A DNA stretch of 64,000 nt from Escherichia phage vB_EcoP_EP32B. Of the stretch, positions 40,615-60,318 are shown one piece after another (position 1 is the stretch's first letter; the number at the start of each line of letters is the position of its first letter). The notes under the pieces were generated by a model that saw nothing but the letters and a program-made list of their open reading frames with translations, had not been told where the DNA came from and did not search any database. The DNA is taken from the sequence record OR544955, one strand, 5' to 3'. The position numbers and the translations under genes were made by a program.

Positions 40615-41300
<686 letters not shown>

Positions 41301-41313
41301 TTTTCACAAAACA

Positions 41314-41348
41314 GTTTACATAAGGATGATGGTGTGATACTATCATCC
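41314..41348 (+). promoter_or_regulatory. PeSL-like early promoter with stem-loop
   Basis: GTTTAC 41314-41319, TGATACTAT 41335-41343, inverted repeat GGATGAT/ATCATCC flanking the -10. Confidence 0.55.
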
Positions 41349-41377
41349 TATCAAATAAACAACCTCAAGGAAATAAA

Positions 41378-41440
41378 ATGAAAACATATCAAGAATTTAT
41401 ATATGTTATAGTAGTCCTATCAAAACAAGAGGATAATAAA
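41378..41440 (+). other. Remnant internal-protein (IPI-type) start codon region fused to a partial PeSL
   Basis: ATG with SD encoding MKTYQEFI (capsid-targeting-sequence-like), running directly into TATGTTATAGTAGTCCTATCAAAACAAGAGGA and a second start at 41441. Confidence 0.45.
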
Positions 41441-41626
41441 ATGAAACGCGCTGAACTGATTCGTAATGTTGCTGTAGTAATTGCTTCAATGGCTTTTAGT
41501 TTTTCGATGTTTGTAGGATTCATTTGTGGACTACTGACAACAACTGAAAACTCTATCTCATTGGTAGTAGCATTTCTAATCGGCTTAATCGCTATCGTTA
41601 TGGATAAAATTGCAAAAGGTGAGTAA
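41441..41626 (+). CDS. Small hydrophobic membrane protein (61 aa; 82 aa if started at 41378)
   Basis: ATG 41441 with GAGGA SD; predicted TM helices. Confidence 0.5.
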   Translation: MKRAELIRNVAVVIASMAFSFSMFVGFICGLLTTTENSISLVVAFLIGLIAIVMDKIAKGE

Positions 41627-41989
41627 ATGAAATATCATGTATATGCAGATTTTGAAGCAAATCCTTCTAAAGACCATGATTGTCGTTTGATACGCAGACC
41701 ATTTGATTCAGCAGCTCAAGCCTGGGCTTGGATTAAATCTAAATCGCCTGGTTATATGTTCTTTGAAGTAGTCGATGACAATGGTACACTGCATCCGGCC
41801 CCTACAGAAACTATTAATTTCCTTCTGTTTGCTGGTTATGACTGTTATCCTCTTGGTGGTATTGACGACCTTGTTGCTACAGGAAAAACTGTTGAGGCTC
41901 TTCGCGAAATTTATAAAAACGCAGAAGAAAATTTTGACTGGTATCATATTGTTGATGCTCATACCTTTGAAATAGTGGAACATTCATGA
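41627..41989 (+). CDS. Hypothetical protein
   Basis: 120 aa ORF, ATGA overlap with upstream. Confidence 0.5.
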   Translation: MKYHVYADFEANPSKDHDCRLIRRPFDSAAQAWAWIKSKSPGYMFFEVVDDNGTLHPAPTETINFLLFAGYDCYPLGGIDDLVATGKTVEALREIYKNAEENFDWYHIVDAHTFEIVEHS

Positions 41990-42276
41990 TTCTTTATGCT
42001 AAGGTAAAATCCGTTGAGAATGGATATGAAAGCGACCGGGGTGCAGCTAAAGCACTAGTCGATGACTACGGTATTCTGACTAACTTTGAGGTTGAAAAGG
42101 TTTATATCGACCGTTCATCTTCACAGGTTAAATTACTCTGTGAAGACAATAAATTTAACACAGTTAATTTTGATTTCTTTATTGAAACTGAATCAGGTCC
42201 TCTTGAATATGATATTTTCAAGAATCCTTTGAAATTACGTTGCATTGAATATAATTACATTAATATGGTACGGTGA
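41986..42276 (+). CDS. Hypothetical protein
   Basis: 96 aa ORF overlapping previous stop. Confidence 0.5.
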   Translation: MILYAKVKSVENGYESDRGAAKALVDDYGILTNFEVEKVYIDRSSSQVKLLCEDNKFNTVNFDFFIETESGPLEYDIFKNPLKLRCIEYNYINMVR

Positions 42277-42280
42277 GTAA

Positions 42281-42772
42281 ATGAATATTTGTTTAGGCAG
42301 TACAATTCCTAAGGGTTACGTAATTGATGTCACTACTTGGGAAAATGACGGTGACAACTATAAAACCAAAACATTATTTGGTGTAGAAGAGCATGAGCTC
42401 CAACAGTTTAAATATCTCTTGAAGAAATTTAAGAGTCGTCATTCTAGTACTAAAGCTGAACGTTACTGTGGTAATACACTATTCAGTGATTGCTCGCTTT
42501 TAATCTATGAATACTTGGTTGAAGGACTGTTCTCAGACCAGCTTTATCCAGAATTCATTAAAAAGGTCTTTGATATTGAAGTCGACCTTGGTAATAAATC
42601 TGAAGAAGACGAATCACGTGTATTTGACCTGTTCCAAGGTCTCATTGATATTCTTGGCCATGCTTCTGAATATTATGACTATGATTTCTTGCGTGTAGTT
42701 GAACGTGTTGAATTCGCTTATATTGAAGAAGAAATTGTTTTGCCGACTGTTAAAATGATTGATTTGCTTTAA
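42281..42772 (+). CDS. Hypothetical acidic protein
   Basis: 163 aa ORF. Confidence 0.5.
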   Translation: MNICLGSTIPKGYVIDVTTWENDGDNYKTKTLFGVEEHELQQFKYLLKKFKSRHSSTKAERYCGNTLFSDCSLLIYEYLVEGLFSDQLYPEFIKKVFDIEVDLGNKSEEDESRVFDLFQGLIDILGHASEYYDYDFLRVVERVEFAYIEEEIVLPTVKMIDLL

Positions 42773-42851
42773 GAATTATGTGTTATTATTAATTCATACC
42801 CTCTATTACCAAAGGTGCTCTAAAGTGCCTTTCATAATAGAAAGTTATTTA

Positions 42852-42990
42852 GGCCCTGTAGCTCAATGGTGCAGTAGCTGCTCTGGAAAACCTGTTCCAA
42901 ATTGCAACAGAAGAACGCGAAGAAGTTACATTATGGATTGAAGATAACGCAGGTCTGAATCTCCAGGACGCGATCTCATTATCCCACAAT
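42852..42990 (+). other. Non-coding region with tRNA-like fragments (probable decayed tRNA cluster)
   Basis: GGCCCTGTAGCTCAATGGT resembles acceptor/D-arm; ...GATCTCATTATCC resembles a tRNA 3' region; no complete cloverleaf could be folded by eye. Confidence 0.3.
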
Positions 42991-43039
42991 AGTATCACTG
43001 TTCAAGGCTGGGTATCATCTAGTTATTCTTGCTAAAACA

Positions 43040-43078
43040 GTTTACAACAAGATAGGGCTATGTTATAGTAGTCCTATC
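43040..43078 (+). promoter_or_regulatory. PeSL-like early promoter with stem-loop
   Basis: GTTTAC 43040-43045; TGTTATAGT 43061-43069; inverted repeat GATAGGGCT/AGTCCTATC. Confidence 0.55.
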
Positions 43079-43097
43079 AAAACAAATGGAGTCCACA

Positions 43098-43337
43098 ATG
43101 ATTTATTACGAAAGTATCGGAACCAAAGTGGTTGGTAAAACCATTACTCGTGAAAAGTTTGCAAAGATATTCGATATGCGTTATAAAAAATCTGAACACA
43201 AAGGCATCCGATTCGAAGATGCGCACTGTACAATTTGCCCTTATAATGAAGACATAAACGGTACAATCGTTCCATTGGTAGAGGCTTCACATGATGACCT
43301 CTGGGATGAATATAATATCGCATGTCGTGAAATTTAA
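43098..43337 (+). CDS. Hypothetical protein
   Basis: 79 aa from ATG 43098 after GGAG. Confidence 0.5.
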   Translation: MIYYESIGTKVVGKTITREKFAKIFDMRYKKSEHKGIRFEDAHCTICPYNEDINGTIVPLVEASHDDLWDEYNIACREI

Positions 43338-43365
43338 GTTAATGAATTAATCCGAGGAAAATATT

Positions 43366-44322
43366 ATGATGTTAGTTATTGGTTCTCGTGCACTTCACTA
43401 TCACGGTCTTATTGATTCTAGCGCTATTAAAAATAGTGATTGGGACTTTATTGCGGACCAAGGTTCTTGGAATGCATTCAAAAATCAAATGATGGGTGTA
43501 TATGTTCACCAAGATAACCCTGATGTCCAAGTTTTCAAATGCTTCCATAATGGACGCGAAACTCATTTTGAAGCATATATTGTTCCGGCAATCACTAGTG
43601 TCCGTGAATTAGTCGGTGAACTCACTCCTGAAGATTTCACGTCTTCTTATGACCTTTTAAAATACGCCAAGAAAAATTTGACTAAAGACCGTTTGAACGG
43701 GTTTTACTGGGCAACTCCTGAGATATGTCTTGCAATTAAGATGTCTCATCGTTTCAAGAAAAATAATCCATTCTTTTTAAAGACTATGAACCATATTCAG
43801 TATCTTCGTGGTAAAGGTGTTAAACTGAACGATGAACTTACTGAAATTATGCTGAAACGCCAGAAAGAAACCTTGAACTATGCTCACCCTGTTCTTGACA
43901 CTTCTAAAAGTGCGTTCTTTAAAGATGACATCTATACATATGACCATGATACTATTCACGAAGCTATTGCACTAACAGACCGTCCGGCTTATACATTTTA
44001 CATGAAAGATGGTTCTGAAGTCATGACCTCACGCGAGAAGTTTGAATCACTTCCGGAAATGGTCAAATTGGCCGGTGTATATGAAGAAACATGTGTACTA
44101 GCGTTAGAACGTTCTCAGATTCCTAATGGCTTTGAAATCCATCCTCGTGATAGTTTTATGATGGCATTAGAAAAGGTCTGTACTTCAATCACATCAGGCT
44201 GGTTCCGTGAGTTCGCTTGGGAAAATTATAGCAAAGTAGTAAGTATGTACCAAAGCTTAGGACACGACGATTACGTCAAGCGTTTCAAACAAAACTTTCA
44301 TATGGTAAAACCTTTCAAATAA
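43366..44322 (+). CDS. Hypothetical 318 aa protein with possible nucleotidyltransferase-like GS...DxD motif
   Basis: GAGGA SD; N-terminal VIGSRALHYHGL...SDWDFIAD. Confidence 0.5.
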   Translation: MMLVIGSRALHYHGLIDSSAIKNSDWDFIADQGSWNAFKNQMMGVYVHQDNPDVQVFKCFHNGRETHFEAYIVPAITSVRELVGELTPEDFTSSYDLLKYAKKNLTKDRLNGFYWATPEICLAIKMSHRFKKNNPFFLKTMNHIQYLRGKGVKLNDELTEIMLKRQKETLNYAHPVLDTSKSAFFKDDIYTYDHDTIHEAIALTDRPAYTFYMKDGSEVMTSREKFESLPEMVKLAGVYEETCVLALERSQIPNGFEIHPRDSFMMALEKVCTSITSGWFREFAWENYSKVVSMYQSLGHDDYVKRFKQNFHMVKPFK

Positions 44323-44334
44323 TTTCACAAAACA

Positions 44335-44369
44335 GTTTACAAGGTCTGTAGTTGTTGATACTATAGACC
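44335..44369 (+). promoter_or_regulatory. PeSL-like early promoter with stem-loop
   Basis: GTTTAC 44335-44340; TGATACTAT; inverted repeat GGTCTGTAG/CTATAGACC. Confidence 0.55.
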
Positions 44370-44402
44370 TATCAAAACAAATGAGTGAATGGAGATATCA
44401 AA

Positions 44403-44603
44403 ATGACTACTTTGAATAAACGTTTCGGTAAAGCTAAACCTGGTTGTGCAGCAGAACGTCGTTATGTTTTCGCTCAGTTAGAAGATGTAGAGTATCAGAT
44501 TAATCAAGTTCACATTACTGGTATCGAGCCTATGTGTGGCCTTGAAGCTCTTCGTGAAGTTCGTGATGGGTATCGTCGTGACATCGAAGAAATGTCAAAA
44601 TAA
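44403..44603 (+). CDS. Hypothetical protein
   Basis: 66 aa from ATG 44403 after GGAG. Confidence 0.5.
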   Translation: MTTLNKRFGKAKPGCAAERRYVFAQLEDVEYQINQVHITGIEPMCGLEALREVRDGYRRDIEEMSK

Positions 44604-44604
44604 G

Positions 44605-44644
44605 TGTACAAACTGATAGGACTATGTTATAGTAGTAGTCCTAT
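44605..44644 (+). promoter_or_regulatory. PeSL-like early promoter with stem-loop
   Basis: GTGTAC -35 variant; TGTTATAGT; inverted repeat GATAGGACT/AGTCCTAT. Confidence 0.5.
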
Positions 44645-44664
44645 TAAAACATGAGGAGAATATT

Positions 44665-44970
44665 ATGAAATTAACAGAAACCAATCGAATTGGTCTTTTA
44701 ACAATACTTGCATCACCTTTTTACGCAACTCTTTCTGTTGCAGTATTACAAAAGGCTTACGATATGGATGGTGTTCCTGGTTTTGTATTCTTATCGCCGT
44801 TTTTGCTATTCGTTGGAGCATTGTTATTATATGCCACGACTGGTTTCGACCATAATGTCTGGGTCAATTATAAACGTAAATTGTCCGAAGAAGAACACGC
44901 AGAAGCTCGTAAAAAAGCTATTGAATCTACCAATCTAGAAAATTTCATTAAAGAATGTCGAGGAAAATAA
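44665..44970 (+). CDS. Small membrane protein
   Basis: 101 aa; GAGGAG SD; two predicted TM helices. Confidence 0.55.
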   Translation: MKLTETNRIGLLTILASPFYATLSVAVLQKAYDMDGVPGFVFLSPFLLFVGALLLYATTGFDHNVWVNYKRKLSEEEHAEARKKAIESTNLENFIKECRGK

Positions 44971-45092
44971 TATGAATAGTTCTAAAGTGTTTAATAGTCA
45001 AGCTCGTGCAGTAGGTGGTTTTGCTCATGCGATTAAAAATGACCAGATTAAAAACGAGCCTATGTTCTTTTGTATTTGATTCACGAGTCCAC

Positions 45093-45566
45093 ATGCTGAT
45101 GCCTGGTTGGTATCCTGCTATCCCAGGTTATCACCATGATGACGTACCACGCCCGGATATTCCGGTTGGTCAACATTTTATTACTGCAGGACAACCTGAC
45201 TATGACAATCCTCGCTATTTGTCTGAACATATTCTTGGTCTTGTTAACGCTGATGTGTGTCCTACTCATTTTGCAACAGGAACTGCGGAGTTCAGTCAGA
45301 TTCCTGATGGCGAACTTATCTATCGCCAGTGGCACAAAGAAGTCCTCGAAAAAATCGAAAAAGGCGAACTAGAGAAATGGGAAGCTCCAGACCGTACTCT
45401 TCTTCAGTTTGATTGGCAAACATGGCACACTGGTTCTCGTGCAATTAGTAATGGATGGCGTTGGTTCGGACGTGTATCTCGTAATACAGACCGAGTTAAA
45501 AAGATTACCAATGAAATTCGCGTCAATGCCCAAGTTTATCTGGAATTCCCTATGGAAGGCTGGTAA
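45093..45566 (+). CDS. Hypothetical protein (start uncertain)
   Basis: Frame open from 45015; first ATG at 45093 without clear SD; a 35 aa ORF (44972-45079) precedes it in another frame. Confidence 0.4.
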   Translation: MLMPGWYPAIPGYHHDDVPRPDIPVGQHFITAGQPDYDNPRYLSEHILGLVNADVCPTHFATGTAEFSQIPDGELIYRQWHKEVLEKIEKGELEKWEAPDRTLLQFDWQTWHTGSRAISNGWRWFGRVSRNTDRVKKITNEIRVNAQVYLEFPMEGW

Positions 45567-45925
45567 TGATTAACAAAACATATTGGTCTAATATTGACGA
45601 CGGCAATGAAGGTATTTCGTACTATTCAGTGGATTGGACAGGATGTCCATCCTACTTAGTGAAACGTATTTGCCAAGAATTTAAAATCGACAAACCAGCA
45701 GGTATTATCGTGAACAGATACATTAATGGATATCAACCTATCGATGAAGTAATACGAACAACTCAAGCTGATCTTGAAAAGTTTTTCAATAAGTGCCAAT
45801 GGATAACAGGATGGATTATATTTGTACCGTCGGTATGGTTTTTTAGTACTAAGGTGAGTTCTTTCGGTTTTGTTGATATTATTGCTATCTTATTAGCATC
45901 TGCTATCATAAGTCATCATTATTAA
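45566..45925 (+). CDS. Hypothetical protein with C-terminal hydrophobic anchor
   Basis: 119 aa; ATGA overlap with upstream. Confidence 0.5.
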   Translation: MINKTYWSNIDDGNEGISYYSVDWTGCPSYLVKRICQEFKIDKPAGIIVNRYINGYQPIDEVIRTTQADLEKFFNKCQWITGWIIFVPSVWFFSTKVSSFGFVDIIAILLASAIISHHY

Positions 45926-46018
45926 TCTTGTTAAAAGTAGTTTACAGGAACGTAAAGACAAGATAAAGGCCAAGAATAACGAAGTTGAACGTTTTATTAC
46001 TGAATGCAGGAATTTGAG

Positions 46019-46255
46019 ATGAGTATAGCAATTTACATTAAATCAGAATCATGTGATAGTTATCTGTACACATACGATAAAGATGTGTCAGAAGAAAAAA
46101 TCAAAGACGACCTTAATACGGATCTTGATATGTTCTGTCCTATTGCAGATTACAAACTTGCGGTCTCTAATAGTGAAAGTCCATCTAAAGAAACGCGCAT
46201 TGAAGAATTTATGTCCGAATTAATGGCCAAATCATGGGACCGAGATGATGAGTAA
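46019..46255 (+). CDS. Hypothetical acidic protein
   Basis: 78 aa; preceded by a GTTTAC -35-like element at 45939. Confidence 0.45.
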   Translation: MSIAIYIKSESCDSYLYTYDKDVSEEKIKDDLNTDLDMFCPIADYKLAVSNSESPSKETRIEEFMSELMAKSWDRDDE

Positions 46256-46703: not shown

Positions 46704-46737
46704 GTAATAAATATCTCCTATAAACGTGGGAGGTATT

Positions 46738-47504: not shown

Positions 47505-47505
47505 T

Positions 47506-47559
47506 GTTTACTTCCTCCAAGGACTTTGATACTATACATTCATCAACTACTTGGAGGAA
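47506..47559 (+). promoter_or_regulatory. PeSL-like early promoter with stem-loop
   Basis: GTTTAC 47506-47511; TTGATACTAT; 9 bp inverted repeat TTCCTCCAA/TTGGAGGAA. Confidence 0.55.
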
Positions 47560-47562
47560 ATT

Positions 47563-47976
47563 ATGACTCGTATCAATTTAACACTTGTTTCTGAACTGAC
47601 TGACCAACATCTTATGGCTGAGTATCGTGAATTACCACGCGTATTTGGTGCAGTCCGTAAACATGTTCAAAACGGTAAACGTGTAAAGGATTTTAAAATC
47701 TCTCCAACATTTATCTTAGGCACAGGTCACGTAACATTCTTTTACGACAAACTTGAATTTTTACGTTTACGACAAATCGAGCTAATCGCCGAATGCTTGA
47801 AACGTGGTTTCAAAATCAAGGACACGACTGTCCAGGATATTTCCGACATCCCTGCAGAATTTCGTAATAATTATGTCCCATCCGAAGCGTCCATTGCGAT
47901 AAGTCAAGCACGCTTAGATGAAAAAATTGCTCAACGTCCGACTTGGTACAAATACTATGGTAAATCAATTTACTAA
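47563..47976 (+). CDS. denV: Endonuclease V (pyrimidine dimer DNA glycosylase DenV)
   Basis: 137 aa; [12 protein letters not shown]...TWYKYYGK recalled as T4 endo V. Confidence 0.9.
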
Positions 47977-49502: not shown

Positions 49503-49890
49503 AGACATCAAAGGCTATAAGCCGCATACCGACGATAAAATCGGTAAAGTGAACGCTATTAAAGATGCAGAAGTTCGAGGAAAAATACTAATGGCTCAAA
49601 TCCTATCAGGCTTTGGAACTCATTATGAAGCATCTAGACGCATAACTGAAAGCAATCCTTTTGGCCTTGTTCCGAAGCACAAGAAAATTCAAAGCCTTGA
49701 TGACTTTGAGAACCGCCTATGGGCCCTCTTTAATGAGTACAAGGCATATCTGAAAGAAGACGCTGACGATTGTCTTGAAGAAGATGAGATTGCGTATTAC
49801 GAACAACGCCTTGAACAGCTCAAGAACTTCCATCAGGTTCGTGACGAAGTATCTAAAGCAGTTAAAAAGTTAATTCCTTTCAAAGAGTAG
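49492..49890 (+). CDS. Hypothetical protein
   Basis: 132 aa from ATG 49492 overlapping upstream stop. Confidence 0.45.
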
Positions 49891-49940
49891 TTTACTTCTC
49901 CTCTAGTTGTGTTACTATAGACATGTCAACTAGAGGAGAA
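49890..49940 (+). promoter_or_regulatory. PeSL-like early promoter with 14 bp perfect stem
   Basis: GTTTAC 49890-49895; TGTTACTAT in loop; inverted repeat TTCTCCTCTAGTTG (49896-49909) / CAACTAGAGGAGAA (49927-49940), which includes the regB SD. Confidence 0.6.
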
Positions 49941-49946
49941 ATCAAA

Positions 49947-50405
49947 ATGACTATCAATTCAGACGTTTTTATCCGCCGTAATAAACTCCGTCGAATCTTT
50001 GAAACGGAGTTCCGCAAAATAAATGCCGGTATAAAAGATGCTGCAAAGTCTCTTGGACTACCAGGCTTTCATATCAAGTATTCTCAACATCTCTTAGATC
50101 GTGCCATCCAGAGAGAAATAGATGAGAATTACGTTTTTGAATTATTTCATAAAGTAAAAAATCATGTTAAAGAAGTTGCAGAATTTTTATCAATGCCGGC
50201 ACGTCCAGATGTTGATGAAGATTTTGTCGAAGGTGTCGAGTATCGTCCAGGCCGTTTAGAAATAACTGATGGAAATCTTTGGTTAGGACTTACAGTCTGT
50301 CGCGAAAATCCAGCATTCAAAATGAAGACTCTTCAATGCAGAATGGCTATTATTAACAGTAAACGACTACCAGGAAAAGCTTCTAAAGCAGTGATTAAAA
50401 TCTAG
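49947..50405 (+). CDS. regB: RegB endoribonuclease
   Basis: 152 aa; MTINSDVFIRRNKLRR...LQCRMAIINSKRLPGKASKAVIKI recalled as T4 RegB. Confidence 0.85.
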   Translation: MTINSDVFIRRNKLRRIFETEFRKINAGIKDAAKSLGLPGFHIKYSQHLLDRAIQREIDENYVFELFHKVKNHVKEVAEFLSMPARPDVDEDFVEGVEYRPGRLEITDGNLWLGLTVCRENPAFKMKTLQCRMAIINSKRLPGKASKAVIKI

Positions 50406-53051: not shown

Positions 53052-53058
53052 TTTACTA

Positions 53059-53085
53059 GCCCCTTCCTTACGGTTGGGGCTTTTT
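53059..53085 (+). terminator. Rho-independent terminator after rI
   Basis: GCCCC...GGGGC hairpin plus T5. Confidence 0.6.
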
Positions 53086-53096
53086 GGCATCTATCA

Positions 53097-53147
53097 GTTT
53101 ACTTCTCCTCAGGTTGTGTTATAGTAGACCTTACTTACTAGAGGAGA
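53097..53147 (+). promoter_or_regulatory. PeSL-like early promoter with stem-loop
   Basis: GTTTAC 53097-53102; TGTGTTATAGT; inverted repeat TCTCCTC/GAGGAGA. Confidence 0.55.
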
Positions 53148-53152
53148 ACGTT

Positions 53153-53332
53153 ATGTCACGTAAAGAAAAAATTTCTAAGTTGATGTTTTTGATTGAAGAG
53201 TATGCTAATGCGGTGTCTGATTGGGAAAATGCTCATGGGTGCGAAGATGGAGACATCGACATTAACAGAGCTATGAAAAAGATGGCTGATACTCACACCG
53301 AATTGCAAATGTATGTTAACGAGATTATGTGA
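53153..53332 (+). CDS. Hypothetical protein (59 aa)
   Basis: ATG 53153 following the GAGGAGA stem/SD. Confidence 0.45.
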   Translation: MSRKEKISKLMFLIEEYANAVSDWENAHGCEDGDIDINRAMKKMADTHTELQMYVNEIM

Positions 53333-53339
53333 GGACATT

Positions 53340-53546
53340 ATGCTTTACGATTATACTGGAAAATCTGAAGACGGTGTACTTGAACTTTTACCTGAAAGCG
53401 CTGAAGACGATGATATGGTGGTGATGTTTTGTAAAAATGGCCCTGGGGATAAGGGATGGATTTATCTTCGCCAAGAAAATGACTTAATTGTTTTGGACCC
53501 TAAACAAGTTGAAGAACTTTATCAACATTTAAAACACAATCGGTAG
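53340..53546 (+). CDS. Hypothetical acidic protein (68 aa)
   Basis: ATG 53340. Confidence 0.45.
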   Translation: MLYDYTGKSEDGVLELLPESAEDDDMVVMFCKNGPGDKGWIYLRQENDLIVLDPKQVEELYQHLKHNR

Positions 53547-53586
53547 TTTACGTCTTGGTAGGACTATGATATAGTAATCCTACCAA
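53546..53586 (+). promoter_or_regulatory. PeSL-like early promoter with stem-loop
   Basis: GTTTAC 53546-53551; TATGATATAGT; 9 bp inverted repeat TTGGTAGGA/TCCTACCAA. Confidence 0.55.
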
Positions 53587-53603
53587 AACAAATGGAGAAC
53601 AAA

Positions 53604-53714
53604 ATGAAACTTTTGCTTATCGCTTATGTTGTAGTACAATACAATTATCCGATGTTTACTTATAACATGGTAAACGGCATAGTGAATCTTATTGAAACGA
53701 GTATGGTAAAATGA
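53604..53714 (+). CDS. Possible 36 aa hydrophobic micropeptide
   Basis: ATG 53604 after GGAGA SD; MKLLLIAYVVVQYNYPMF... Confidence 0.3.
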   Translation: MKLLLIAYVVVQYNYPMFTYNMVNGIVNLIETSMVK

Positions 53715-53890
53715 CCCGTGAACAAGCTAATAAATTGATGGACCTTATCCGTGACTTACGTGAAGCCGATTCAGATTTGAGTGATGTAGCTTATCATGCG
53801 GTAAATGATAACGGAGACTTTTATGAAAATCAGGTTGATGCTTGCCAGAATGCTTTGGTGAATTTTGTTGAAACTTTAATTGGTGAATAA
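53711..53890 (+). CDS. Hypothetical protein (59 aa)
   Basis: ATGA overlap with upstream. Confidence 0.4.
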   Translation: MTREQANKLMDLIRDLREADSDLSDVAYHAVNDNGDFYENQVDACQNALVNFVETLIGE

Positions 53891-53891
53891 T

Positions 53892-54422: not shown

Positions 54423-54431
54423 GGAATTATT

Positions 54432-54905
54432 ATGATTATCAATGAAAACTCTTGGCACTTTAAAATTTATGCCGCGTTTAATAGTACATGGAATCGCCCG
54501 AAAACGTTGTGTGCTTATTTTTGGAAAACGTTAATCCCGGTATTGGCTGTTTCAATTATTGGATTTGCGATTTTAGCAGCAGTCGTAATCATTGGCCAGG
54601 AAATTTTAACTAAATTCTTTGTTTTTAGTAGTCTATGGACATTAGTTCCGGCCTCAATTGGCGTAGGCATTTTAATGGTAGCAGTCATGGCTTTTATTGC
54701 TACCGGGTTGGTAATTGGTCCGTCTTGGTTGTTAGACAAATATAACGACAGAAAATATTATAAAGAAATCGAGCTCATTGCACAAAACCAAGAACGAATT
54801 AAAAATGGACTTGAACCTATTGAACGTAAGAAATCATTAATAGGTGAATACCTTAAAGCTCGTAAAGAAAAAATCTGTCCTACTCTTGAATATAAGGCTA
54901 AATGA
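54432..54905 (+). CDS. Membrane protein (about 3 TM helices)
   Basis: 157 aa; AAGGA SD; hydrophobic segments. Confidence 0.55.
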   Translation: MIINENSWHFKIYAAFNSTWNRPKTLCAYFWKTLIPVLAVSIIGFAILAAVVIIGQEILTKFFVFSSLWTLVPASIGVGILMVAVMAFIATGLVIGPSWLLDKYNDRKYYKEIELIAQNQERIKNGLEPIERKKSLIGEYLKARKEKICPTLEYKAK

Positions 54906-55891
54906 TGAAAACAATTATGAAAGGCTACTTTGGTAGCCACCTTTATGGAACGTCTACTCCTGAATCTGACGTCGATTTTAAAGAAATTTATGTCCCTCAT
55001 GCTCGTGATATCTTGACCGGTAACGTTAAAGAACACATGAGCAAGAACACGAATAACACATCTTCTAAGAACACAAAAGACGACGTGGACCATGAGTTGT
55101 ATAGTCTCAAATATTTCTTTAAACTAGCTGCGGATGGTGAAACCGTCGCATTAGATATGCTTCACACTCCACCAAGTTTAGTAGTTAAATCTGATTTGCC
55201 TGATGTATGGAAGTATATTCAAGATAACAGGTCTCGTTTCTATACCACTAACATGAAATCTTATTTAGGGTATGTCCGTAAGCAAGCTTCTAAATATGGT
55301 GTCAAGGGTTCTCGACTGGCTGTTCTTCGTCAAGCCCTTAAACGTTCTAATGAATGGGGACAATACTTTGATAATGGTGCAGTAATTCGTTTATCACATA
55401 TGAAGAATGTTCTGCCTGTAGGTGAATTTGCTTCGTGGGTTGAAACTGAAAACGAGAAAACAGGTAAGCAAACATTCTATAATCTGTTAGACCGTAAATT
55501 CCAAGACACATTAACTAATAAAGAGTTCAATGCCATCCTGGTTAAACTGGAAGAGAACTATGGTGAACGTGCTCGTAAGGCAGAAGCTAACGAAGGTATT
55601 GACTGGAAAGCATTGAGTCATGCATGTCGTGGTGGACTTCAATTATTAGAAATTTACAAAACAGGCGATCTGGTTTACCCACTTCAGGATGCTCCATTTA
55701 TTCTCGATGTTAAGCTTGGTAAACATACGTTTAAAACTGTACAAGAATTCCTAGAAGATATCGTTGACCAAGTTGAACATGCGTCAGAACAAGCTGCCAA
55801 GAACGGTATGCAACAAAAAGTAGATATGAGTTTCTGGGATGACTTCCTTGAACAAGTCTATCTCGAAAATCATAATTCTTACTATAAATAA
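54902..55891 (+). CDS. Predicted nucleotidyltransferase-fold protein
   Basis: 329 aa; N-terminal GSHLYGTSTPESDVDF matches the minimal NTase G[SG]...D.D motif. Confidence 0.55.
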   Translation: MMKTIMKGYFGSHLYGTSTPESDVDFKEIYVPHARDILTGNVKEHMSKNTNNTSSKNTKDDVDHELYSLKYFFKLAADGETVALDMLHTPPSLVVKSDLPDVWKYIQDNRSRFYTTNMKSYLGYVRKQASKYGVKGSRLAVLRQALKRSNEWGQYFDNGAVIRLSHMKNVLPVGEFASWVETENEKTGKQTFYNLLDRKFQDTLTNKEFNAILVKLEENYGERARKAEANEGIDWKALSHACRGGLQLLEIYKTGDLVYPLQDAPFILDVKLGKHTFKTVQEFLEDIVDQVEHASEQAAKNGMQQKVDMSFWDDFLEQVYLENHNSYYK

Positions 55892-55922
55892 GTAGATAAA
55901 TAACCATTAACTTGAGGTAAAT

Positions 55923-56204
55923 ATGAAAAAATTAGTAATTGGTTTATTCGCAGTAATGATGGCATTCTCTGTTGGTGCTACCACGGGTGCTGCTGGCGGT
56001 AGTGCAGGAGCTGGTGGTAACCAGTCTTCTGGGCCTTCTAATGGTTCGGTAAATGCATCACATTCTCAGGGTATTGAGAACATTAGATCAAGCTATATTA
56101 ATAGCACGGCCGGACAAGCAACTGAAGCATGGTCAAAGGGCCGAGTAGTTACTCGCTCCGTATTCTGTGATATGCCTAATTATGTTGCTAAGTGCGATAA
56201 GTAA
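55923..56204 (+). CDS. Secreted Gly/Ser-rich small protein
   Basis: 93 aa; signal peptide; GAAGGSAGAGGNQSSG. Confidence 0.5.
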   Translation: MKKLVIGLFAVMMAFSVGATTGAAGGSAGAGGNQSSGPSNGSVNASHSQGIENIRSSYINSTAGQATEAWSKGRVVTRSVFCDMPNYVAKCDK

Positions 56205-56208
56205 ATGT

Positions 56209-56228
56209 GGGGACCTTCGGGTCCCTTT
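56209..56228 (+). terminator. Rho-independent terminator
   Basis: GGGGACC-TTCG-GGTCCC followed by TTT. Confidence 0.55.
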
Positions 56229-56255
56229 AGGGGGTCAAAATATTTTTAAAAAGTA

Positions 56256-56290
56256 GTGTACATGCTTTTAGGATATGTTATTATAGACCT
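56256..56290 (+). promoter_or_regulatory. PeSL-like early promoter
   Basis: GTGTAC -35 variant; TATGTTATTATAGACCTATCG. Confidence 0.5.
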
Positions 56291-56322
56291 ATCGAAACGA
56301 AATGAGTAAATTGGAGAATAAA

Positions 56323-57303
56323 ATGTTCAACGTTCAAATCAAAAAAGGTATCTATCGTAATAACGAAATCTCTGGTTCTTATGTTGCCACAAAGACCTGG
56401 TTCCCGGCAAAGCTTAATCCTGAATGTTCCCACTTAGGTGATGGTAAAATTTTCGTTATGATTGATGGTTCTGAACGTGGAGTATGGGTCTTCAAATCAG
56501 ACATCGTAATGGAAGGAGTTGAGACATCACCGGTTGCAGTTGTTGAAAGCACTGAAGATATGAAAACTCGTATCAACAAACGCTTTAAAGTAATGAACAT
56601 GATGACGAATGGCATTATCGATGGTAAAATTCGTTCACTCATTATTTCAGGTGCAGCTGGTATTGGTAAGACGTATTCTCTGGATAAAGCACTTAATAAC
56701 GCTAATGATAATGGTTTCATCAAATACAAAAGCATTAATGGTAAAATCTCCGGTATTGGCCTTTACGAACAACTTTGGCTCAACCGTGATGCAGACAGCG
56801 TTCTCTTAATCGACGACGTTTACGTATTCTCGGATATGGACATCTTGAACCTTCTTAAAGCAGCATTAGATACTGGAGATAAACGCAAAGTTTGCTGGAG
56901 CACGGCGTCATCTTATCTCGATGATAAGGGTATTGATAAAGAATTTGAGTTTGAAGGTACTATCGTTTTCATTACAAACGTTGATATCGATAAAGAGTTA
57001 GAACGCGGTTCGAAACTTGCTCCGCACCTTCAAGCTTTAGTATCTCGTTCAGTGTATCTCGACCTTGGAGTACACTCTAATGAAGAGATTATGGTTCGAG
57101 TTGAAGATGTAATATTATCTACTGACATGATGCAGAAACGTGGTCTGACGGATGCAGAAACGTATAAAGCATTGTCCTGGATGAAGGCTAACGTATCTCG
57201 TCTTCGCAATGTATCATTACGTACGGCTCTTTATGTAGCAGATTTTATTTCAACTGATAAAGATGGTTGGGAGGAAATCTCCGAAGTAACTTTACTGAAA
57301 TAA
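56323..57303 (+). CDS. AAA+ family ATPase with N-terminal extra domain
   Basis: 326 aa; Walker A GAAGIGKT, Walker B VLLIDDV, sensor-1-like FITN. Confidence 0.6.
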   Translation: MFNVQIKKGIYRNNEISGSYVATKTWFPAKLNPECSHLGDGKIFVMIDGSERGVWVFKSDIVMEGVETSPVAVVESTEDMKTRINKRFKVMNMMTNGIIDGKIRSLIISGAAGIGKTYSLDKALNNANDNGFIKYKSINGKISGIGLYEQLWLNRDADSVLLIDDVYVFSDMDILNLLKAALDTGDKRKVCWSTASSYLDDKGIDKEFEFEGTIVFITNVDIDKELERGSKLAPHLQALVSRSVYLDLGVHSNEEIMVRVEDVILSTDMMQKRGLTDAETYKALSWMKANVSRLRNVSLRTALYVADFISTDKDGWEEISEVTLLK

Positions 57304-57441
57304 GCTTATAGGAAGTTCTGAGGTAACAAAAGCCATAAAGATGAATAATCATATGGCTTACCTCAAAGAAGGACACCAGGAACCTACTGAGGGCATAGAA
57401 ATATTTAAAAATAATGTTGTACAAATCAAAGAGGCTATGTT

Positions 57442-57729
57442 ATGGATTTTATGCAAAAAATTAAAGCCGCAGTCGAACTGTATGCTCATCGTATGGTTAG
57501 TTCTACAATGCAATATAGCGAGGAGGTTCGCCAGGACTCTTCCTTGAAAGGAAAAACTAAAGCCTTAATTACCTTAGACCGTTTGCAAAAGAATGTCATA
57601 GAGATGCTCCAGTACGACAAGGGTGTATATAAGAAAGAACAGGAAGAGAAACTTAAATCTGAAAAATTACAAAAAATCCCGAAGTCGGTTTGGTTCAGTG
57701 GAAAAAATACCGAAAAAAGTTTCTTTTAG
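57442..57729 (+). CDS. Hypothetical basic protein
   Basis: 95 aa; AAGAGG SD. Confidence 0.45.
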   Translation: MDFMQKIKAAVELYAHRMVSSTMQYSEEVRQDSSLKGKTKALITLDRLQKNVIEMLQYDKGVYKKEQEEKLKSEKLQKIPKSVWFSGKNTEKSFF

Positions 57730-57731
57730 TT

Positions 57732-57765
57732 GTTTACAAGGTCTATGTTTATGTTATTATAGACC
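57732..57765 (+). promoter_or_regulatory. PeSL-like early promoter with stem-loop
   Basis: GTTTAC 57732-57737; TATGTTATTATAG; inverted repeat GGTCTAT/ATAGACC. Confidence 0.55.
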
Positions 57766-57787
57766 TATCAACTACTGGAGGTAAAAC

Positions 57788-58315
57788 ATGAACGCTAAAG
57801 ATATTTTCAACCTGGTAAATTATAACGACGGTAAATTTAAATCCGAAGCACAAAGCAAGTTCTTTAATGACGTTGCTTATGGTAACGAGATTACTGTGGA
57901 CGGAGGTCAGATTTTCAAATCTCGCTGGAATTGGATTGTTATCATCGATTCAGTTGGAATTGTGGAAGTCTACAAAAACACTAACAAAAAACGTACATTA
58001 TTCTGGTCTCGTGAAACTAACGAGCAGTACAAAAAGGATAAAGCATCTCGTTTATCCAAAGTAACCCAGGAAGATATCGAGTTTATCAAGAAAGATATCG
58101 AGATGTACGAAAATTTAATCGCTGAAGACCAGGCAGTACTCGATAAGTTTGATGAAATTAAAGCTTCTCGTGAAATCCCTGACTTCATGAAAGAAACAGT
58201 AAACGAACGATACGCTCTCACTTCAGAACGTATTGCAAACTATACAAAACAGAAATCAGAACGTATTAGTACTCTTCGGAAATTTGAAGAACGTTTAAAG
58301 ACGGTTCACGCATAA
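57788..58315 (+). CDS. Hypothetical protein
   Basis: 175 aa; GGAGG SD. Confidence 0.5.
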   Translation: MNAKDIFNLVNYNDGKFKSEAQSKFFNDVAYGNEITVDGGQIFKSRWNWIVIIDSVGIVEVYKNTNKKRTLFWSRETNEQYKKDKASRLSKVTQEDIEFIKKDIEMYENLIAEDQAVLDKFDEIKASREIPDFMKETVNERYALTSERIANYTKQKSERISTLRKFEERLKTVHA

Positions 58316-58318
58316 ACG

Positions 58319-58342
58319 CTTTACCCAAGGACGGGTTATAAT
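58319..58342 (+). promoter_or_regulatory. Early sigma70-like promoter
   Basis: CTTTAC -35, TATAAT -10 at 58337-58342. Confidence 0.5.
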
Positions 58343-58377
58343 GGTTTTGAGTTCCAATTCAATCTGAGGAAATAGTT

Positions 58378-59373
58378 ATGAGCATTACATCTGATGCTGT
58401 AAAACATGAAATTAACGGTTTATGTGCTTCACAGATTAAAGTGTGGTTTAAAGACCATAACGATCGCAGAGCACTTAATTATGAGCAAATTGCTATCCAA
58501 GTTCATCAATTACTGACTAGTAAATTTGATTTTCATATGCCGTCTGAAATCTATACTAATCTACCGCGAGCGCTTATTAAAGCGTGTAAAGGTTACGGAA
58601 AATCAATGGCTGATGGAATCTTCAGCGCGCTGAATAAACTTAACGTTCTGTCGATGATTAACTCTAACAACATCCTGCGTAATCTAGGACGTACTGATTT
58701 GTTCGGTCGTGAACAGTGTAAAATGCCTTTGAAATGGATTGTTGCTCATCTTAACGAGAACCAAACACGTTTTATGGCCGTATCAGCACGCTTACAAATG
58801 GGCCTAGATCGTCAGATGAACTTTAAAACTCATCCACGTTATTCAGGTTCAACAGACTTTTATAAATGTGAGCTTCAAAAGGTCGGTGGCAAAACCGTCT
58901 TAGTAGTTCGTGTAACGTTTGAAGGACGACGTCAAGGATATTTTGACCTAATCGGCTCTGGTCTTAAACATTGTGGATTTATTGACGAAGTTGATATCAA
59001 GCGAGACGGCATTGGATACCGTATTGGATATGTTTGTACTCTTAAAGAAGAGATTTCAGGACCAGCACCAGGACTAAAAGACGTTAGATATAAAGACGAG
59101 CTCATTGAAGAAATAAAAGAAGTTGAATATGATATCAACCAAGAAGATGCTCTTAAAGACCTTATTGATGAACTAAACCAAGACGTTATTCCGGTTCAGA
59201 AATTTGAATCAAAACACGCTGAGCAAATCAAATACTTTGAAGCTTTGATTAACGAACTTAATGTAACTATTCAACAAACTGATGATGAAATCTCACGATT
59301 AGCAGGCTTAAACGGTAAAAATAAAACAGAACGAGCTAATCTTATTCAGGTAGTAAAACTTCTTAAGGAATGA
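58378..59373 (+). CDS. Hypothetical protein with C-terminal coiled coil
   Basis: 331 aa; GAGGA SD. Confidence 0.5.
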   Translation: MSITSDAVKHEINGLCASQIKVWFKDHNDRRALNYEQIAIQVHQLLTSKFDFHMPSEIYTNLPRALIKACKGYGKSMADGIFSALNKLNVLSMINSNNILRNLGRTDLFGREQCKMPLKWIVAHLNENQTRFMAVSARLQMGLDRQMNFKTHPRYSGSTDFYKCELQKVGGKTVLVVRVTFEGRRQGYFDLIGSGLKHCGFIDEVDIKRDGIGYRIGYVCTLKEEISGPAPGLKDVRYKDELIEEIKEVEYDINQEDALKDLIDELNQDVIPVQKFESKHAEQIKYFEALINELNVTIQQTDDEISRLAGLNGKNKTERANLIQVVKLLKE

Positions 59374-59402
59374 TGTACAACCAAGGATGGTTGGAGTATA
59401 AT
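59374..59402 (+). promoter_or_regulatory. Early promoter cassette (copy A of a 26 nt direct repeat)
   Basis: TGTACA -35; ACAACCAAGGATGGTTGGAGTATAAT identical to 60264-60289. Confidence 0.55.
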
Positions 59403-59428
59403 AAATTTTTCAACATGAGGAATATAAA

Positions 59429-60196
59429 ATGGCTTTTATTACACGTAGAGAACTTATCAAAGAATTTACCTCGAACGCATATACTCCAGGACCTAATCCT
59501 ATCCGTATGCCTGTAAAGACTCCTGAAGAGATTGAGGAAATCTGTTCATATTATGGGATTACTTCTCGTAAGTTTACTCAATTTGAATGCGTTACTAACA
59601 CACCCGTTAAAGAGTTCATTAAAAATGGTGAGTTCAGCCGTTTATTAGCCAAACAGAAACTTCGTAATTTTTGTATTGGCGGTGAAGGACAATATTTCGC
59701 TAAGCAGTTTCGGAATAACCTTAACAATCTGATGGCCATTGCTTCTCGTATTCGTCCTCAAGCAATTAATATGAAACATTTGAAATATACTTACGATAAG
59801 TTGGAAATCATGGTTATCAGTGAGAATGAGTTCACTCTCACGTATAAACCTAAGAATGATAACGTTGCTCGTGTATTCCACCAAGCGTTGGAAGTGTTAG
59901 GTGATAATATTCACCAGATTAAAGCAATTTATTCTCGTGAGCTTAATATTATCAACCCTATCAAGAATAAGGGCCATATCGCTATCCAGGCTCGTGTATC
60001 TATTGGTAAAAAGGTTCCTGCGCCATGGTGGCACAAAGACTCCGAATATTATCAAAATCTTAAAAAGGAAAATGCACTAATGACCTTCTTCCGGCCGAAG
60101 ATTACCATTACAATCAAATCAAGGCCACTATGGACCAACTGTCTGTTGAACTTGACAAAGCACAAGCTAAGCTTCGTGATGCTCAAAGTGTTGTAA
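59429..60196 (+). CDS. Hypothetical protein; C-terminus possibly frameshifted
   Basis: 255 aa; last ~35 aa hydrophobic/low-complexity while an overlapping frame (to 60254) encodes a coiled-coil tail like those of neighbouring ORFs. Confidence 0.45.
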   Translation: MAFITRRELIKEFTSNAYTPGPNPIRMPVKTPEEIEEICSYYGITSRKFTQFECVTNTPVKEFIKNGEFSRLLAKQKLRNFCIGGEGQYFAKQFRNNLNNLMAIASRIRPQAINMKHLKYTYDKLEIMVISENEFTLTYKPKNDNVARVFHQALEVLGDNIHQIKAIYSRELNIINPIKNKGHIAIQARVSIGKKVPAPWWHKDSEYYQNLKKENALMTFFRPKITITIKSRPLWTNCLLNLTKHKLSFVMLKVL

Positions 60197-60259
60197 CGAA
60201 TCTCCAGTTGCAGTACTCTAAACTTTTTAACGCAATGAATGCATTAAAATCATAAATCA

Positions 60260-60289
60260 GTTTACAACCAAGGATGGTTGGAGTATAAT
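60260..60289 (+). promoter_or_regulatory. Early promoter cassette (copy B of the 26 nt direct repeat)
   Basis: GTTTAC 60260-60265; TATAAT 60284-60289. Confidence 0.55.
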
Positions 60290-60318
60290 GAAATCTATCT
60301 TAACGAGAGGAAAATATT

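Follow-up and report, generated by a model that had tools for sequence, protein, structure and literature searches.

Why should an early promoter carry an inverted repeat whose arms change from one copy to the next and yet keep their place? The question is raised by positions 41300-60300 of Escherichia phage vB_EcoP_EP32B (sequence record OR544955), of which we analysed one stretch of 64,000 nucleotides, hereafter the window. The original prediction, drawn from the letters alone, described at least 14 plus-strand modules, nearly all of them in this segment, each with a GTTTAC-type −35 element, an extended −10 element, usually an inverted repeat, a Shine-Dalgarno (SD) sequence and a start codon, and compared them with cassettes of T4-type phages known as promoter early stem-loops (PeSLs). 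Judged by nucleotide identity, the window is that of a Mosigvirus, an RB69-like phage of the T4 type: Mosigvirus genomes, including E. coli O157 typing phage 3, RB69 and G53, match 41300-60300 at 96-98%, and the Tequatrovirus (T4) group at about 81%. We are highly confident that the modules are early-promoter cassettes of the PeSL type. The best overall explanation of their inverted repeats, and in our estimate probably the right one, is that they act in RNA and discriminate read-through transcripts from promoter-proximal ones.

Early promoters of the T4 type on a single strand

Both strands of the whole window were scanned with a strict motif (GTTTAC with at most 1 mismatch, 17 or 18 nt to TAnnnT with at most 2 mismatches, a bonus for TG, and a score of at least 11). 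The scan returned 14 sites on the plus strand and none on the minus strand, whereas 100 dinucleotide shuffles gave 2.4 ± 1.5 sites with both strands pooled; at a score of at least 12, 7 sites were found and 0.14 were expected. The motif is thus enriched over background in the full window. Its sites start at 9041, 41314, 43040, 44335, 44604, 47506, 49890, 53097, 53546, 56256, 57732, 60260, 61235 and 62424; 13 of them lie in 41.3-62.5 kb, from gene 57B to pin, and the single isolated one between genes 23 and 24. A generic sigma-70 scan (TTGACA/TATAAT) showed no enrichment, with 75 sites against 66 expected, and the signal is therefore that of the T4-specific early-promoter consensus. Strong enrichment on one strand confirmed that the modules are sigma-70-type T4 early promoters followed by an SD and an ATG. 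The predicted count held for 12 of the 14 sites then listed, which score at least 11 and are strand-specific, but 59374 is weak and 58319 is not of the early type. Two matches additional to that list, 61235 and 62424, both lie within coding sequence.

Aligned on the −10 element, the cassettes read GTTTAC(A/T/G), a 16-17-bp spacer ending in TG(T/A), TA(T/C)(A/T)(A/G)T, often AGACCTATCAA(A/C), then the SD and ATG; the spacer used to decide membership, 16-17 bp, was counted from TTTACN. The AT content of the 25 nt 5' of the −35 averages 0.69 against 0.63 for the region, most intergenic cassettes reach 0.72-0.84, and the motif TCACAAAACA recurs. The sequence upstream of 61235 and 62424 is not AT-rich.

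The early-promoter consensus of T4 was reviewed by Hinton (2010), and Nolan et al. (2006) list 58 RB69 sites (57 in the text). GTTTAC at −35, a TGn-extended −10, an A-rich UP region, and a place on the early strand 5' of early genes and novel open reading frames (ORFs) are shared with these T4 and RB69 promoters; in text searches of the two papers no structure at early promoters came up. The RB69 predictions of Nolan et al. are orthologs of 12 of the 13 early-type sites of the original prediction (11 of the 12 within the region); they carry the prefix Pe in the list below, where Pe:48639 belongs to the added match at 62424. Site 44335 alone among the early-type sites has no such ortholog, as the ORF there is missing from RB69, which retains just a hybrid cassette. 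Across 57 T4-like loci, the strict motif occurred 372 times on the early, plus strand and 19 times on the other, and an SD and ATG followed within 90 nt in 321 of the 372 cases.

PeSLs were defined in RB49/phi1, with stems mostly between −35 and −10 or over −10 (Arbiol et al. 2010, PMC2839356), and were extended to T4/PST and KVP40/nt-1 by Comeau et al. (2014); Mosigvirus, the RB69 group, stands outside these published phage pairs. The likeness to them that had been proposed was borne out, since the stem anatomy is that of RB49/phi1. As in PeSLs, one intergenic cassette unites AT-rich sequence, an early promoter of the sigma-70 kind, a stem-loop and SD/ATG. Such cassettes are concentrated in hyperplastic early regions; ORF-sized indels that distinguish close relatives go with them, and the crossovers occur between promoter sub-elements. 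In contrast to PeSLs, the window stems are A/T/G-mixed and individually different rather than GGGG..CCCC, have no U-tracts and are not predicted terminators; the window also has a subclass in which the spacer pairs with the SD, and its cassettes are involved in a minority of indels. The array is the ordinary early-promoter set of an RB69-like phage and fits the PeSL concept of 2010/2014. The further claim that the cassettes frame small ORFs is true of some, but several head long genes or multi-gene units, namely denV, regB with about 12 genes, nrdC.10, nrdC.8, nrdC.5 and nrdC.3.

Inverted repeats in two positions around the start site

For the stem test, the spacer of each cassette was compared with its own segment from −10 to ATG, with cross-pairs between cassettes as the control, and the start site was assumed to lie 7 nt after the −10. 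The 15 cassettes of the window are listed below, with stems written as 5' arm / 3' arm.

41314..41380, + strand: cassette with ipI-type promoter, 3' of 57B; −35 41314-41320, −10 TACTAT 41338-41343, ATG 41378; stem AGGATGATGGT 41323-41333 / ACTATCATCCT 41339-41349, read-through fold −16.6 kcal/mol, z −4.3; ortholog of RB69 Pe:77187
43040..43100, + strand: cassette 5' of RB69ORF135c homolog; −10 TATAGT 43064-43069; stem GATAGGGCTA 43051-43060 / TAGTCCTATC 43069-43078 with one G.T, z −2.9; ortholog of RB69 Pe:69254
44335..44405, + strand: cassette 5' of a 66-aa ORF (44403-44603), at the left end of an ORF-sized indel; stem AGGTCTGTAGT 44342-44352 / ACTATAGACCT 44360-44370, z −3.2
44604..44667, + strand: cassette 5' of RB69ORF133c homolog, at the right end of the 44342-44603 indel; −35 GTGTAC; stem TGATAGGACTA 44614-44624 / TAGTCCTATTA 44636-44646, z −3.3; ortholog of RB69 Pe:67959
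47506..47565, + strand: denV early promoter cassette; −10 47530-47535, ATG 47563; SD-masking stem TTCCTCCAAG 47512-47521 / CTTGGAGGAA 47550-47559, z −3.4; ortholog of RB69 Pe:64934
49890..49949, + strand: regB early promoter cassette; −10 TACTAT 49913-49918, ATG 49947; perfect 14-bp SD-masking stem TTCTCCTCTAGTTG 49896-49909 / CAACTAGAGGAGAA 49927-49940, −25.4 kcal/mol, z −5.8; ortholog of RB69 Pe:61376
53097..53155, + strand: cassette 5' of mobD.2a-like ORF; SD-masking stem TTCTCCTC 53103-53110 / GAGGAGAA 53141-53148, whole-segment fold unexceptional, z −0.4; ortholog of RB69 Pe:58138
53546..53606, + strand: early cassette; stem TTGGTAGGA 53555-53563 / TCCTACCAA 53578-53586, extending to 11-12 pairs, z −2.2; ortholog of RB69 Pe:57689
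56256..56325, + strand: early cassette 5' of nrdC.10, no strong stem; RB69 Pe:55296 and Pe:55018
57732..57790, + strand: early cassette 5' of nrdC.8; stem AGGTCTAT 57739-57746 / ATAGACCT 57759-57766, z −2.6; ortholog of RB69 Pe:53683
59373..59431, + strand: weak early-type cassette 5' of nrdC.5, degenerate −35 ATGTAC, no TG; short spacer-internal palindrome CAACCA..TGGTTG at 59378-59393; ortholog of RB69 Pe:52042
60260..60321, + strand: early cassette 5' of nrdC.3; palindrome CAACCA..TGGTTG at 60265-60280; ortholog of RB69 Pe:51019
61235..61295, + strand: promoter-motif match of uncertain status in the nrdC.3/nrdC.2 overlap, no stem, absent from the RB69 prediction list
62424..62505, + strand: promoter-motif match within a 49.1-like ORF, 5' of pin, conserved in T4, no stem; ortholog of RB69 Pe:48639
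9041..9103, + strand: isolated early cassette of an 89-aa ORF (9101-9370), no significant stem, z −1.6; RB69 Pe:109605 at the matching place

Stems of 8-14 pairs were present in 9 of the 15 cassettes, a 6-bp spacer palindrome only in 2 more, and none in 4. Own pairs averaged 8.07 against 5.9 for cross-pairs (permutation p<5e-5), so that the inverted repeats of 7-14 bp predicted in or next to the promoters do exceed the cross-pair and shuffle controls. When the cassettes were folded as read-through RNA, z ranged from −2.2 to −5.8 at 41314, 43040, 44335, 44604, 47506, 49890, 53546 and 57732, that is, in 8 of the 15; a z of −2.2 or below was not reached at 9041, 53097, 56256, 59373, 60260, 61235 and 62424.

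The stems take one of two geometries. At 41314, 43040, 44335, 44604, 53546 and 57732 the 5' arm lies in the spacer, at about −30 to −18, and the 3' arm begins with the 3' half of the −10 and ends near +5, which places the extended −10 in the loop and leaves the SD free. At 47506 (denV), 49890 (regB) and 53097 the 5' arm directly follows the −35 and the 3' arm is the SD itself. Relative to the start inferred from the −10, the 5' arms fall at −30..−17 or −10..+1. As transcription is expected to start downstream of the 5' arm, the helix would form only in read-through RNA, and the cassette's own RNA would lack that arm. Computed folds agree with this for the SD type, in which the probability that the SD is unpaired, in read-through and own transcript respectively, was 0.00 and 0.37 for denV, 0.00 and 0.64 for regB, and 0.00 and 0.65 for 53097. 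It was the same in both forms outside the SD type, with the exception of 57732, where the SD was less accessible in read-through RNA (0.09 against 0.61). The perfect 14-bp stem predicted at 49896-49940 is exact, and its proposed sequestration of the regB SD in read-through RNA is upheld by these values and by compensatory changes that conserve the stem.

Most cassettes begin where the preceding gene stops, its stop codon adjoining the −35 or overlapping it. This codon ends 8 nt before the 5' arm in denV and 6 nt before it in regB and overlaps the −35 elsewhere, and the hairpins around the −10 lie 6-15 nt behind it. Such a compact layout leaves the spacer and −6..+6 as the sole free sequence, and the arms are therefore located there.

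Covariation across T4-like phages

We surveyed 16 regB and 36 denV loci (20 kb each) of T4-like phages from IMG/VR, together with Mosigvirus and T4 records. They contained 276 distinct cassettes, which fell into 147 families at 80% identity. Stems joining the spacer to the −10 with at least 8 pairs were found in 32% of the families, compared with 3.4% of cross-pairs and 1.7% of shuffled spacers; with at least 9 pairs the figures were 25%, 1.1% and 0.8%. Stems whose two arms flank the start site reached at least 9 pairs in 17.7% of families, against 3.8% and 1.8% in the two controls. Both geometries are thus enriched 5-20-fold over cross-paired and shuffled sequences. In 19 of the 34 start-spanning stems of at least 8 pairs the 3' arm includes an SD motif, and in most of the remainder pairing extends over the start codon; SD-masking stems amount to about 12-18% of cassette families in T4-like phages. 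Unrelated arm sequences occur by the dozen at equivalent positions. The stems therefore vary in sequence yet hold their position, as had been predicted, the complementarity being specific to each cassette's own arms.

T4 itself has such stems at ipI, ipII (14 bp), ipIII and mobD.2 (14 bp) and stems of the SD type at denV, regB and nrdC.8, with arms unlike those of the window. In the T4 ortholog of the nrdC.8 cassette the stem is an SD-masking one (GTTCCTCTGT/ACGGAGGAAC) instead. Potential stem-loops before T4 ipIII, ipII, denV and orf61.9 are said to have been noted by Valerie et al. in 1986.

The regB and denV orthologs were then compared lineage by lineage. A MAFFT alignment of 23 regB promoters analysed with RNAalifold yielded no consensus pairs, because helix registers shift by 1-2 nt between lineages, and per-sequence folds and anchored arm comparisons were used in place of a consensus. 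In the 18 regB lineages folded, the SD pairs with spacer positions 8-15 in 15 and with the −10/discriminator in 2, and is free in 1; 17 of 18 thus pair it with a segment upstream of +1. Outside the SD the arms of the helix vary with the lineage: CTCTAGTTG/CAACTAGAG, CTCTTGACTG/CAGTTAAGAG, CTCTTTATG/CATAAAGAG, TGTAAG/CTTACA, TTTTAGT/ACTAAAA, TGTAG/CTACA and CATTTG/CAAATG. Anchoring the comparison on CTCC:GGAG gave 16 distinct helix extensions of at least 4 nt. The denV SD is masked in most lineages, in some by spacer arms (TTCCTCCAAG, TCTCCTGTAG, CTCCGTTTG, TCTCCTGTG) and in others by the end of the −10 plus the discriminator (e.g. ATGTCCTCCTA/TAGGAGGACAT); its geometry varies between lineages, and the masking arm is always upstream of the start site.

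RNA, DNA or terminator

The segment from −35 to ATG folded more stably as the sense strand than as its reverse complement, with a difference of −1.09 kcal/mol (p=2e-4) that rose to −1.77 in structured cassettes (p=1e-5) and was −0.25 after shuffling. Isolated mismatches in helices of at least 8 Watson-Crick pairs were of the G.U type in 18 cases and of the A.C type in 6 (binomial p=0.023), and both mismatches of the T4 regB stem are G.U. As far as sequence comparison can tell, this favours selection on sense RNA over a symmetric duplex signal and makes plus-strand single-stranded DNA the less likely target. An alternative holds that the inverted repeats act on DNA, as cruciform or hairpin signals for recombination (by endonuclease VII or a dedicated recombinase, for example), the cassettes being mobile linkers and RNA folding incidental. 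PeSL mini-circles have been demonstrated in RB49/phi1 (PMC2839356), and the window offers two clean cassette-to-cassette deletions, two more junctions at cassette edges and an enrichment of indel endpoints (p about 0.003-0.013). We nevertheless consider this alternative improbable. The crossovers lie in the shared −35 or −10/+1 and not in stems; the stems of neighbouring cassettes differ and therefore reduce, rather than raise, homology; about 11 of 15 indels touch no cassette; the G.U-over-A.C bias and the sense-strand energy gain are not expected of a duplex-symmetric signal; and a 3' arm placed exactly on the SD has no rationale at the DNA level. Two other DNA-level candidates were rejected: a cruciform presenting the −10 as a pre-melted loop, given that extrusion would destroy the −35/−10 spacing and given the G.U bias, and a common operator for a dimeric repressor, as the arms differ from cassette to cassette.

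The discoverers of PeSLs proposed that the stem-loops are terminators or attenuators that isolate each cassette, and among the alternatives this one retains the largest share of our belief, though we think it unlikely for the stems considered here. An RB49 PeSL stem-loop inserted behind a promoter and ahead of lacZ reduced expression as rrnB T1 does (PMC2839356), and two GC hairpins with T-runs lie just 5' of cassettes 53097 and 56256:

53058..53086, + strand: terminator-like GC hairpin with T-run (AGCCCC..GGGGCT TTTTT), z −4.4, ortholog of the RB69 TransTerm terminator 'mobD.2a<--rI' (58141-58162)
56209..56228, + strand: terminator-like hairpin with UUCG tetraloop (GGGGACC TTCG GGTCCC TTT), ortholog of the RB69 TransTerm terminator 'RB69ORF102c<--nrdC.11'

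These are the only terminator-like hairpins near cassettes. The intrapromoter stems of the window are followed by A-rich leaders (ATCAAAACAAA...) with no U-tracts, and none has an ortholog in the RB69 TransTerm list of Nolan et al. (2006). SD-type stems, moreover, cover the SD exactly and extend beyond it with covariation, which a terminator would not require. By these features the stems of the RB69/T4 type are not canonical terminators, though they may still attenuate transcription or cause pausing. In RB43, at least 8 TransTerm terminators lie inside predicted early promoters (for example, terminator 11434-11454 in Pe:11463), and in RB69 none (Nolan et al. 2006, supplements), so the hairpin component seems, from these predictions, to differ in kind between phage groups. 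Selection on complementarity itself has also been weighed against its arising as a by-product, without function of its own, of independently conserved promoter sub-elements or of recent cassette duplication. Arms do recur in several cassettes (TAGGACTA/TAGTCCTA, AGGTCTAT/ATAGACCT), giving high cross-pair scores within such families, and RB69-type promoters favour C at −3..−1 (PMC1524935). We give this account hardly any weight, as the cross-pair and shuffle controls over the 147 families hold 5-20-fold fewer stems, dozens of unrelated arms sit at equal positions, and both arms changed together in regB and denV orthologs. Finally, the SD-masking stems may be devices for translational coupling, such that the downstream gene is translated in read-through RNA only when a ribosome on the upstream gene unwinds the helix. 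The stop codons before the denV and regB arms, or overlapping the −35 elsewhere, speak for it, and a distance of 6-8 nt from stop to 5' arm falls within the footprint of a terminating ribosome. That footprint would open just part of an 11-14-bp helix, however, and a transcript from the cassette's own promoter has no need of coupling; we regard coupling as the sole function of these stems as rather unlikely, a little more so than termination.

Several points weigh against discrimination of read-through RNA, the explanation that we prefer. Six of the 15 window cassettes have no significant stem, so the hairpin is not obligatory. Families share descent, and the enrichment counts are thus not fully independent. 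The start sites rest on an assumed distance of 7 nt from the −10. The asymmetry between the strands is modest, and hairpins in plus-strand single-stranded DNA would fit it too. At cassette 53097 an SD mask occurs together with a terminator upstream, and the two are partly redundant. In denV and regB the upstream stop is 6-8 nt before the 5' arm, close enough for a terminating ribosome to melt the helix, and the outcome there may be coupling instead of a block. The RB49 stem-loop that lowered downstream lacZ like a strong terminator (PMC2839356) favours attenuation for the stems around the −10.

A helix that may mark the origin of the transcript

The modules would work as sigma-70-dependent early promoters made up of an A-rich upstream region, GTTTAC(A/T), a 16-17-bp spacer, a TGn-extended −10, a short leader, an SD and a start codon, in which the embedded helix discriminates read-through from promoter-proximal RNA. 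Read-through is plausible, given tandem units on the same strand with no terminator between them. Middle promoters have been mapped in T4 upstream of regB (Pvs.7) and denV (PipIII) (PMC2988021), and untranslatable read-through RNA is therefore expected after the early promoters shut off; no ortholog of T4 Pvs.7 was found upstream of the window regB at up to 3 mismatches.

If the helices fold in vivo as computed, their effects on translation and RNA fate would differ with geometry. With the SD masked (denV, regB and the mobD.2a-like ORF), read-through RNA would be silent, or translated only if a ribosome terminating nearby melts the helix. The paired GGAG of regB read-through RNA would also resist cleavage by RegB, an enzyme inhibited by secondary structure (PMC1702504). 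The cassettes' own early transcripts would be open, which would confine protein synthesis to the 2-3 min of early promoter firing. On this model we find it reasonably likely that SD-masking stems gate or couple translation. Stems around the −10 might serve as RNA punctuation of polycistronic read-through RNA, through attenuation or pausing, through protection of 3' ends after processing, or through structural insulation of the next translation start; for this role we can offer only a tentative preference, and would not expect it to hold in most outcomes.

Comparable control has been described for T4 e, soc, 49 and I-TevI and for Aeh1 mobE, where a helix sequesters SD/AUG in long transcripts begun farther upstream, and where transcription from the proximal promoter, starting within or beyond the 5' arm, yields the only translatable RNA (PMC3014915). 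The SDs of denV, regB and 53097 are likewise paired in upstream-initiated RNA, by prediction with covariation. Those genes use a late promoter and their expression is delayed, whereas the window cassettes use an early sigma-70 promoter, the T4 regB promoter having been mapped as a 'typical early promoter' (PMC3014915); the predicted effect is therefore expression confined to the first minutes. In the literature searched, with older subscription papers outside its scope, we did not find the SD-masking subclass at early promoters, the cross-genus covariation or the sense-strand bias; nor did it yield an earlier account of inverted repeats within T4 early promoters, of SD masking at regB or denV, or of a measured difference in translation between the two transcript forms.

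We further consider it possible, with somewhat less than even confidence, that promoter-embedded hairpins form a general 'transcript-origin code' in T-even phages, by which cassettes mark upstream-derived RNA as distinct from their own. About 1 in 6 families would then close the ribosome-binding site, so that regB and denV would be made only from their own immediate-early transcripts, and about 1 in 3 would bear a free-standing hairpin that punctuates or insulates polycistronic RNA. Such a code would be the early-gene counterpart of late e/soc/49 control, and would explain both the covarying non-terminator stems across genera and context-independent expression of shuffled ORF modules. In any case the comparative data argue that selection on pairing of the sense-strand RNA maintains the stems, and that they are not kept as canonical terminators or DNA recombination signals. 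The SD stems offer a mechanism, open to experiment, by which RegB, a toxic RNase, and a repair nuclease could be limited to the immediate-early period, which bears on the sharp early-gene shut-off in T4 and on the autonomous expression of dense, often shuffled ORF modules.

Cassettes as recombination junctions

Breakpoints were mapped against 7 Mosigvirus relatives over 41.3-63.1 kb; a mapping against distant T4-like loci (about 70% identity) was dropped, as its 323 breaks mostly reflected divergence. About 15 distinct indels or replacements were found, of which about 4 end in a cassette and about 11 elsewhere. The segment 44342-44603 with its 66-aa ORF is absent from RB69, L021 and RPN187, which keep one hybrid cassette there; the crossover (44341/44604) lies in the −35, within GT(T/G)TACA, and is a clean cassette-to-cassette event. 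The second involves RB69ORF102c, which is absent from the window, with a crossover (56263) in the 19-nt ATGTTATTATAGACCTATC (−10 to +1) common to its two flanking cassettes, and 56256 is a hybrid of two RB69 cassettes because the crossover fell in this shared sequence. The ORF upstream of regB has been replaced (49886), with homology restored from AGTAGTTTAC onward. The event at 41402 is an illegitimate deletion, at a TAT microhomology, through which the ipI-type ORF(s) were lost and codon 8 came to abut the −10 of the tRNA.4 cassette. Events unrelated to cassettes lie at 42870, 45070, 46022-46242, 47992, 49577, 51750/51972, 57304-57475, 60076, 62237 and 63076-63088.

Five or 6 of 32 indel endpoints fall in cassettes, which make up 4.4% of the sequence (p about 0.013-0.003). 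The common −35, −10 and leader sequences provide patches of identity of 7-19 nt, through which neighbouring cassettes may occasionally recombine, with loss or gain of one ORF together with its promoter. Comparison of ORF content across relatives showed synteny broken at several cassettes. The proposal that cassettes are recombination points is thus sustained by two clean crossovers and the endpoint enrichment, but only about a quarter of the structural differences touch a cassette: cassettes are enriched junctions, yet not the source of most plasticity here. Their role in recombination is real but minor in this lineage, which tempers the view that 'PeSLs drive plasticity'.

The interval between 57B and tRNA.4 is the counterpart of the internal-protein (ipI) locus, described as hyperplastic in T-even phages (Repoila et al. 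1994, as cited in PMC4122927). In relatives, one or two different ORFs occupy it, with cassettes at their flanks; in the window, by contrast, it is empty, and the first 8 ipI-type codons run straight into the −10 of the cassette that follows. Translation from the ipI-type start codon (41378) would stay in frame up to the tRNA.4 start (41441) and could extend that product by 21 codons at its N-terminus. In a T4-type phage (L037 / L011, IMG/VR contig 2974787500) with a RegB 77% identical to that of the window, the denV promoter region matches the window's over 100 nt, identically, which indicates that Tequatrovirus and Mosigvirus lineages have probably exchanged DNA at some point between denV and regB.

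A middle promoter at 58319

The one listed site that had to be withdrawn as an early-type cassette is 58319, where only 12-13 nt separate CTTTAC from TATAAT, too short for early-promoter spacing.

58317..58342, + strand: MotA-box-type middle promoter 5' of nrdC.6 (CGCTTTA, 13 nt, TATAAT), not an early cassette

The site can be aligned base for base with PnrdC.7, a middle promoter of T4 with a transcription start site mapped at 53325 (Hinton review, Table 1, PMC2988021), and is on this account a MotA-box middle promoter. Its MotA box AAACGCTTTA, 13 nt from TATAAT, has one mismatch to (a/t)(a/t)(a/t)TGCTT(t/c)A, as in T4 PnrdC.7; its ortholog is not among the RB69 middle-promoter predictions. 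The spacer core CCAAGGA(C/T)GG is common to the middle promoter at 58317-58342 and the cassettes at 59373-59402 and 60260-60289, and the latter two are identical over 27 nt of spacer and −10. This similarity suggests that adjacent nrdC.x promoters may have been derived from one another, a 6-nt indel switching early-type to MotA-type spacing.

Gene order and other features

In the RB69 annotation, the early genes on the plus strand run 1, 57A, 57B, tRNA.4-.2, homologs of RB69ORF135c/134c/133c/132c, e.2, nudE, e and denV; then vs.8-vs.4, regB, vs.1, vs, tk.4, tk, rI, mobD.2a and mobD.1; then nrdC.11, nrdC.10, nrdC.8, nrdC.6, nrdC.5, nrdC.3, nrdC.2, nrdC.7, nrdC, 49.1, pin and 49. ARAGORN found no tRNA genes in the window (1-64000). 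At 42870-42871 all 7 Mosigvirus relatives hold 4.9-5.9 kb with 2-10 tRNA genes and e.8-e.3-type ORFs; in the coordinates of O157 typing phage 3, the left end of the deletion is inside tRNA-Met and the right end inside the RB69ORF136c homolog. Also missing relative to every compared relative are 93 bp within the RB69ORF132c homolog (45070), 0.4-1.4 kb after denV (47992), 446 bp in the tk.3 region (51972), 134 bp within nrdC.5 (60076) and 0.2-0.5 kb after nrdC (62237). These gaps make the phage look like a member of its group that has undergone multiple deletions.

Four phage contigs of 345-378 kb (L043, L045, L049 and L051) have a GC hairpin, GGGTTGAC..GTCAGCCC, with a T-run about 60 nt 5' of denV; its 5' arm holds a TTGAC −35, and TATAAT follows. 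By analogy with RB49-type PeSLs, which it resembles, this hairpin of jumbo phages, an unrelated group, may be a terminator that overlaps a promoter.

The isolated 9041 cassette and its ORF lie between late genes 24 (7716-8999) and 23 (9423 onward), both on the minus strand. By its position, 9041-9370 appears to be a typical ORFan insertion in the core structural block.

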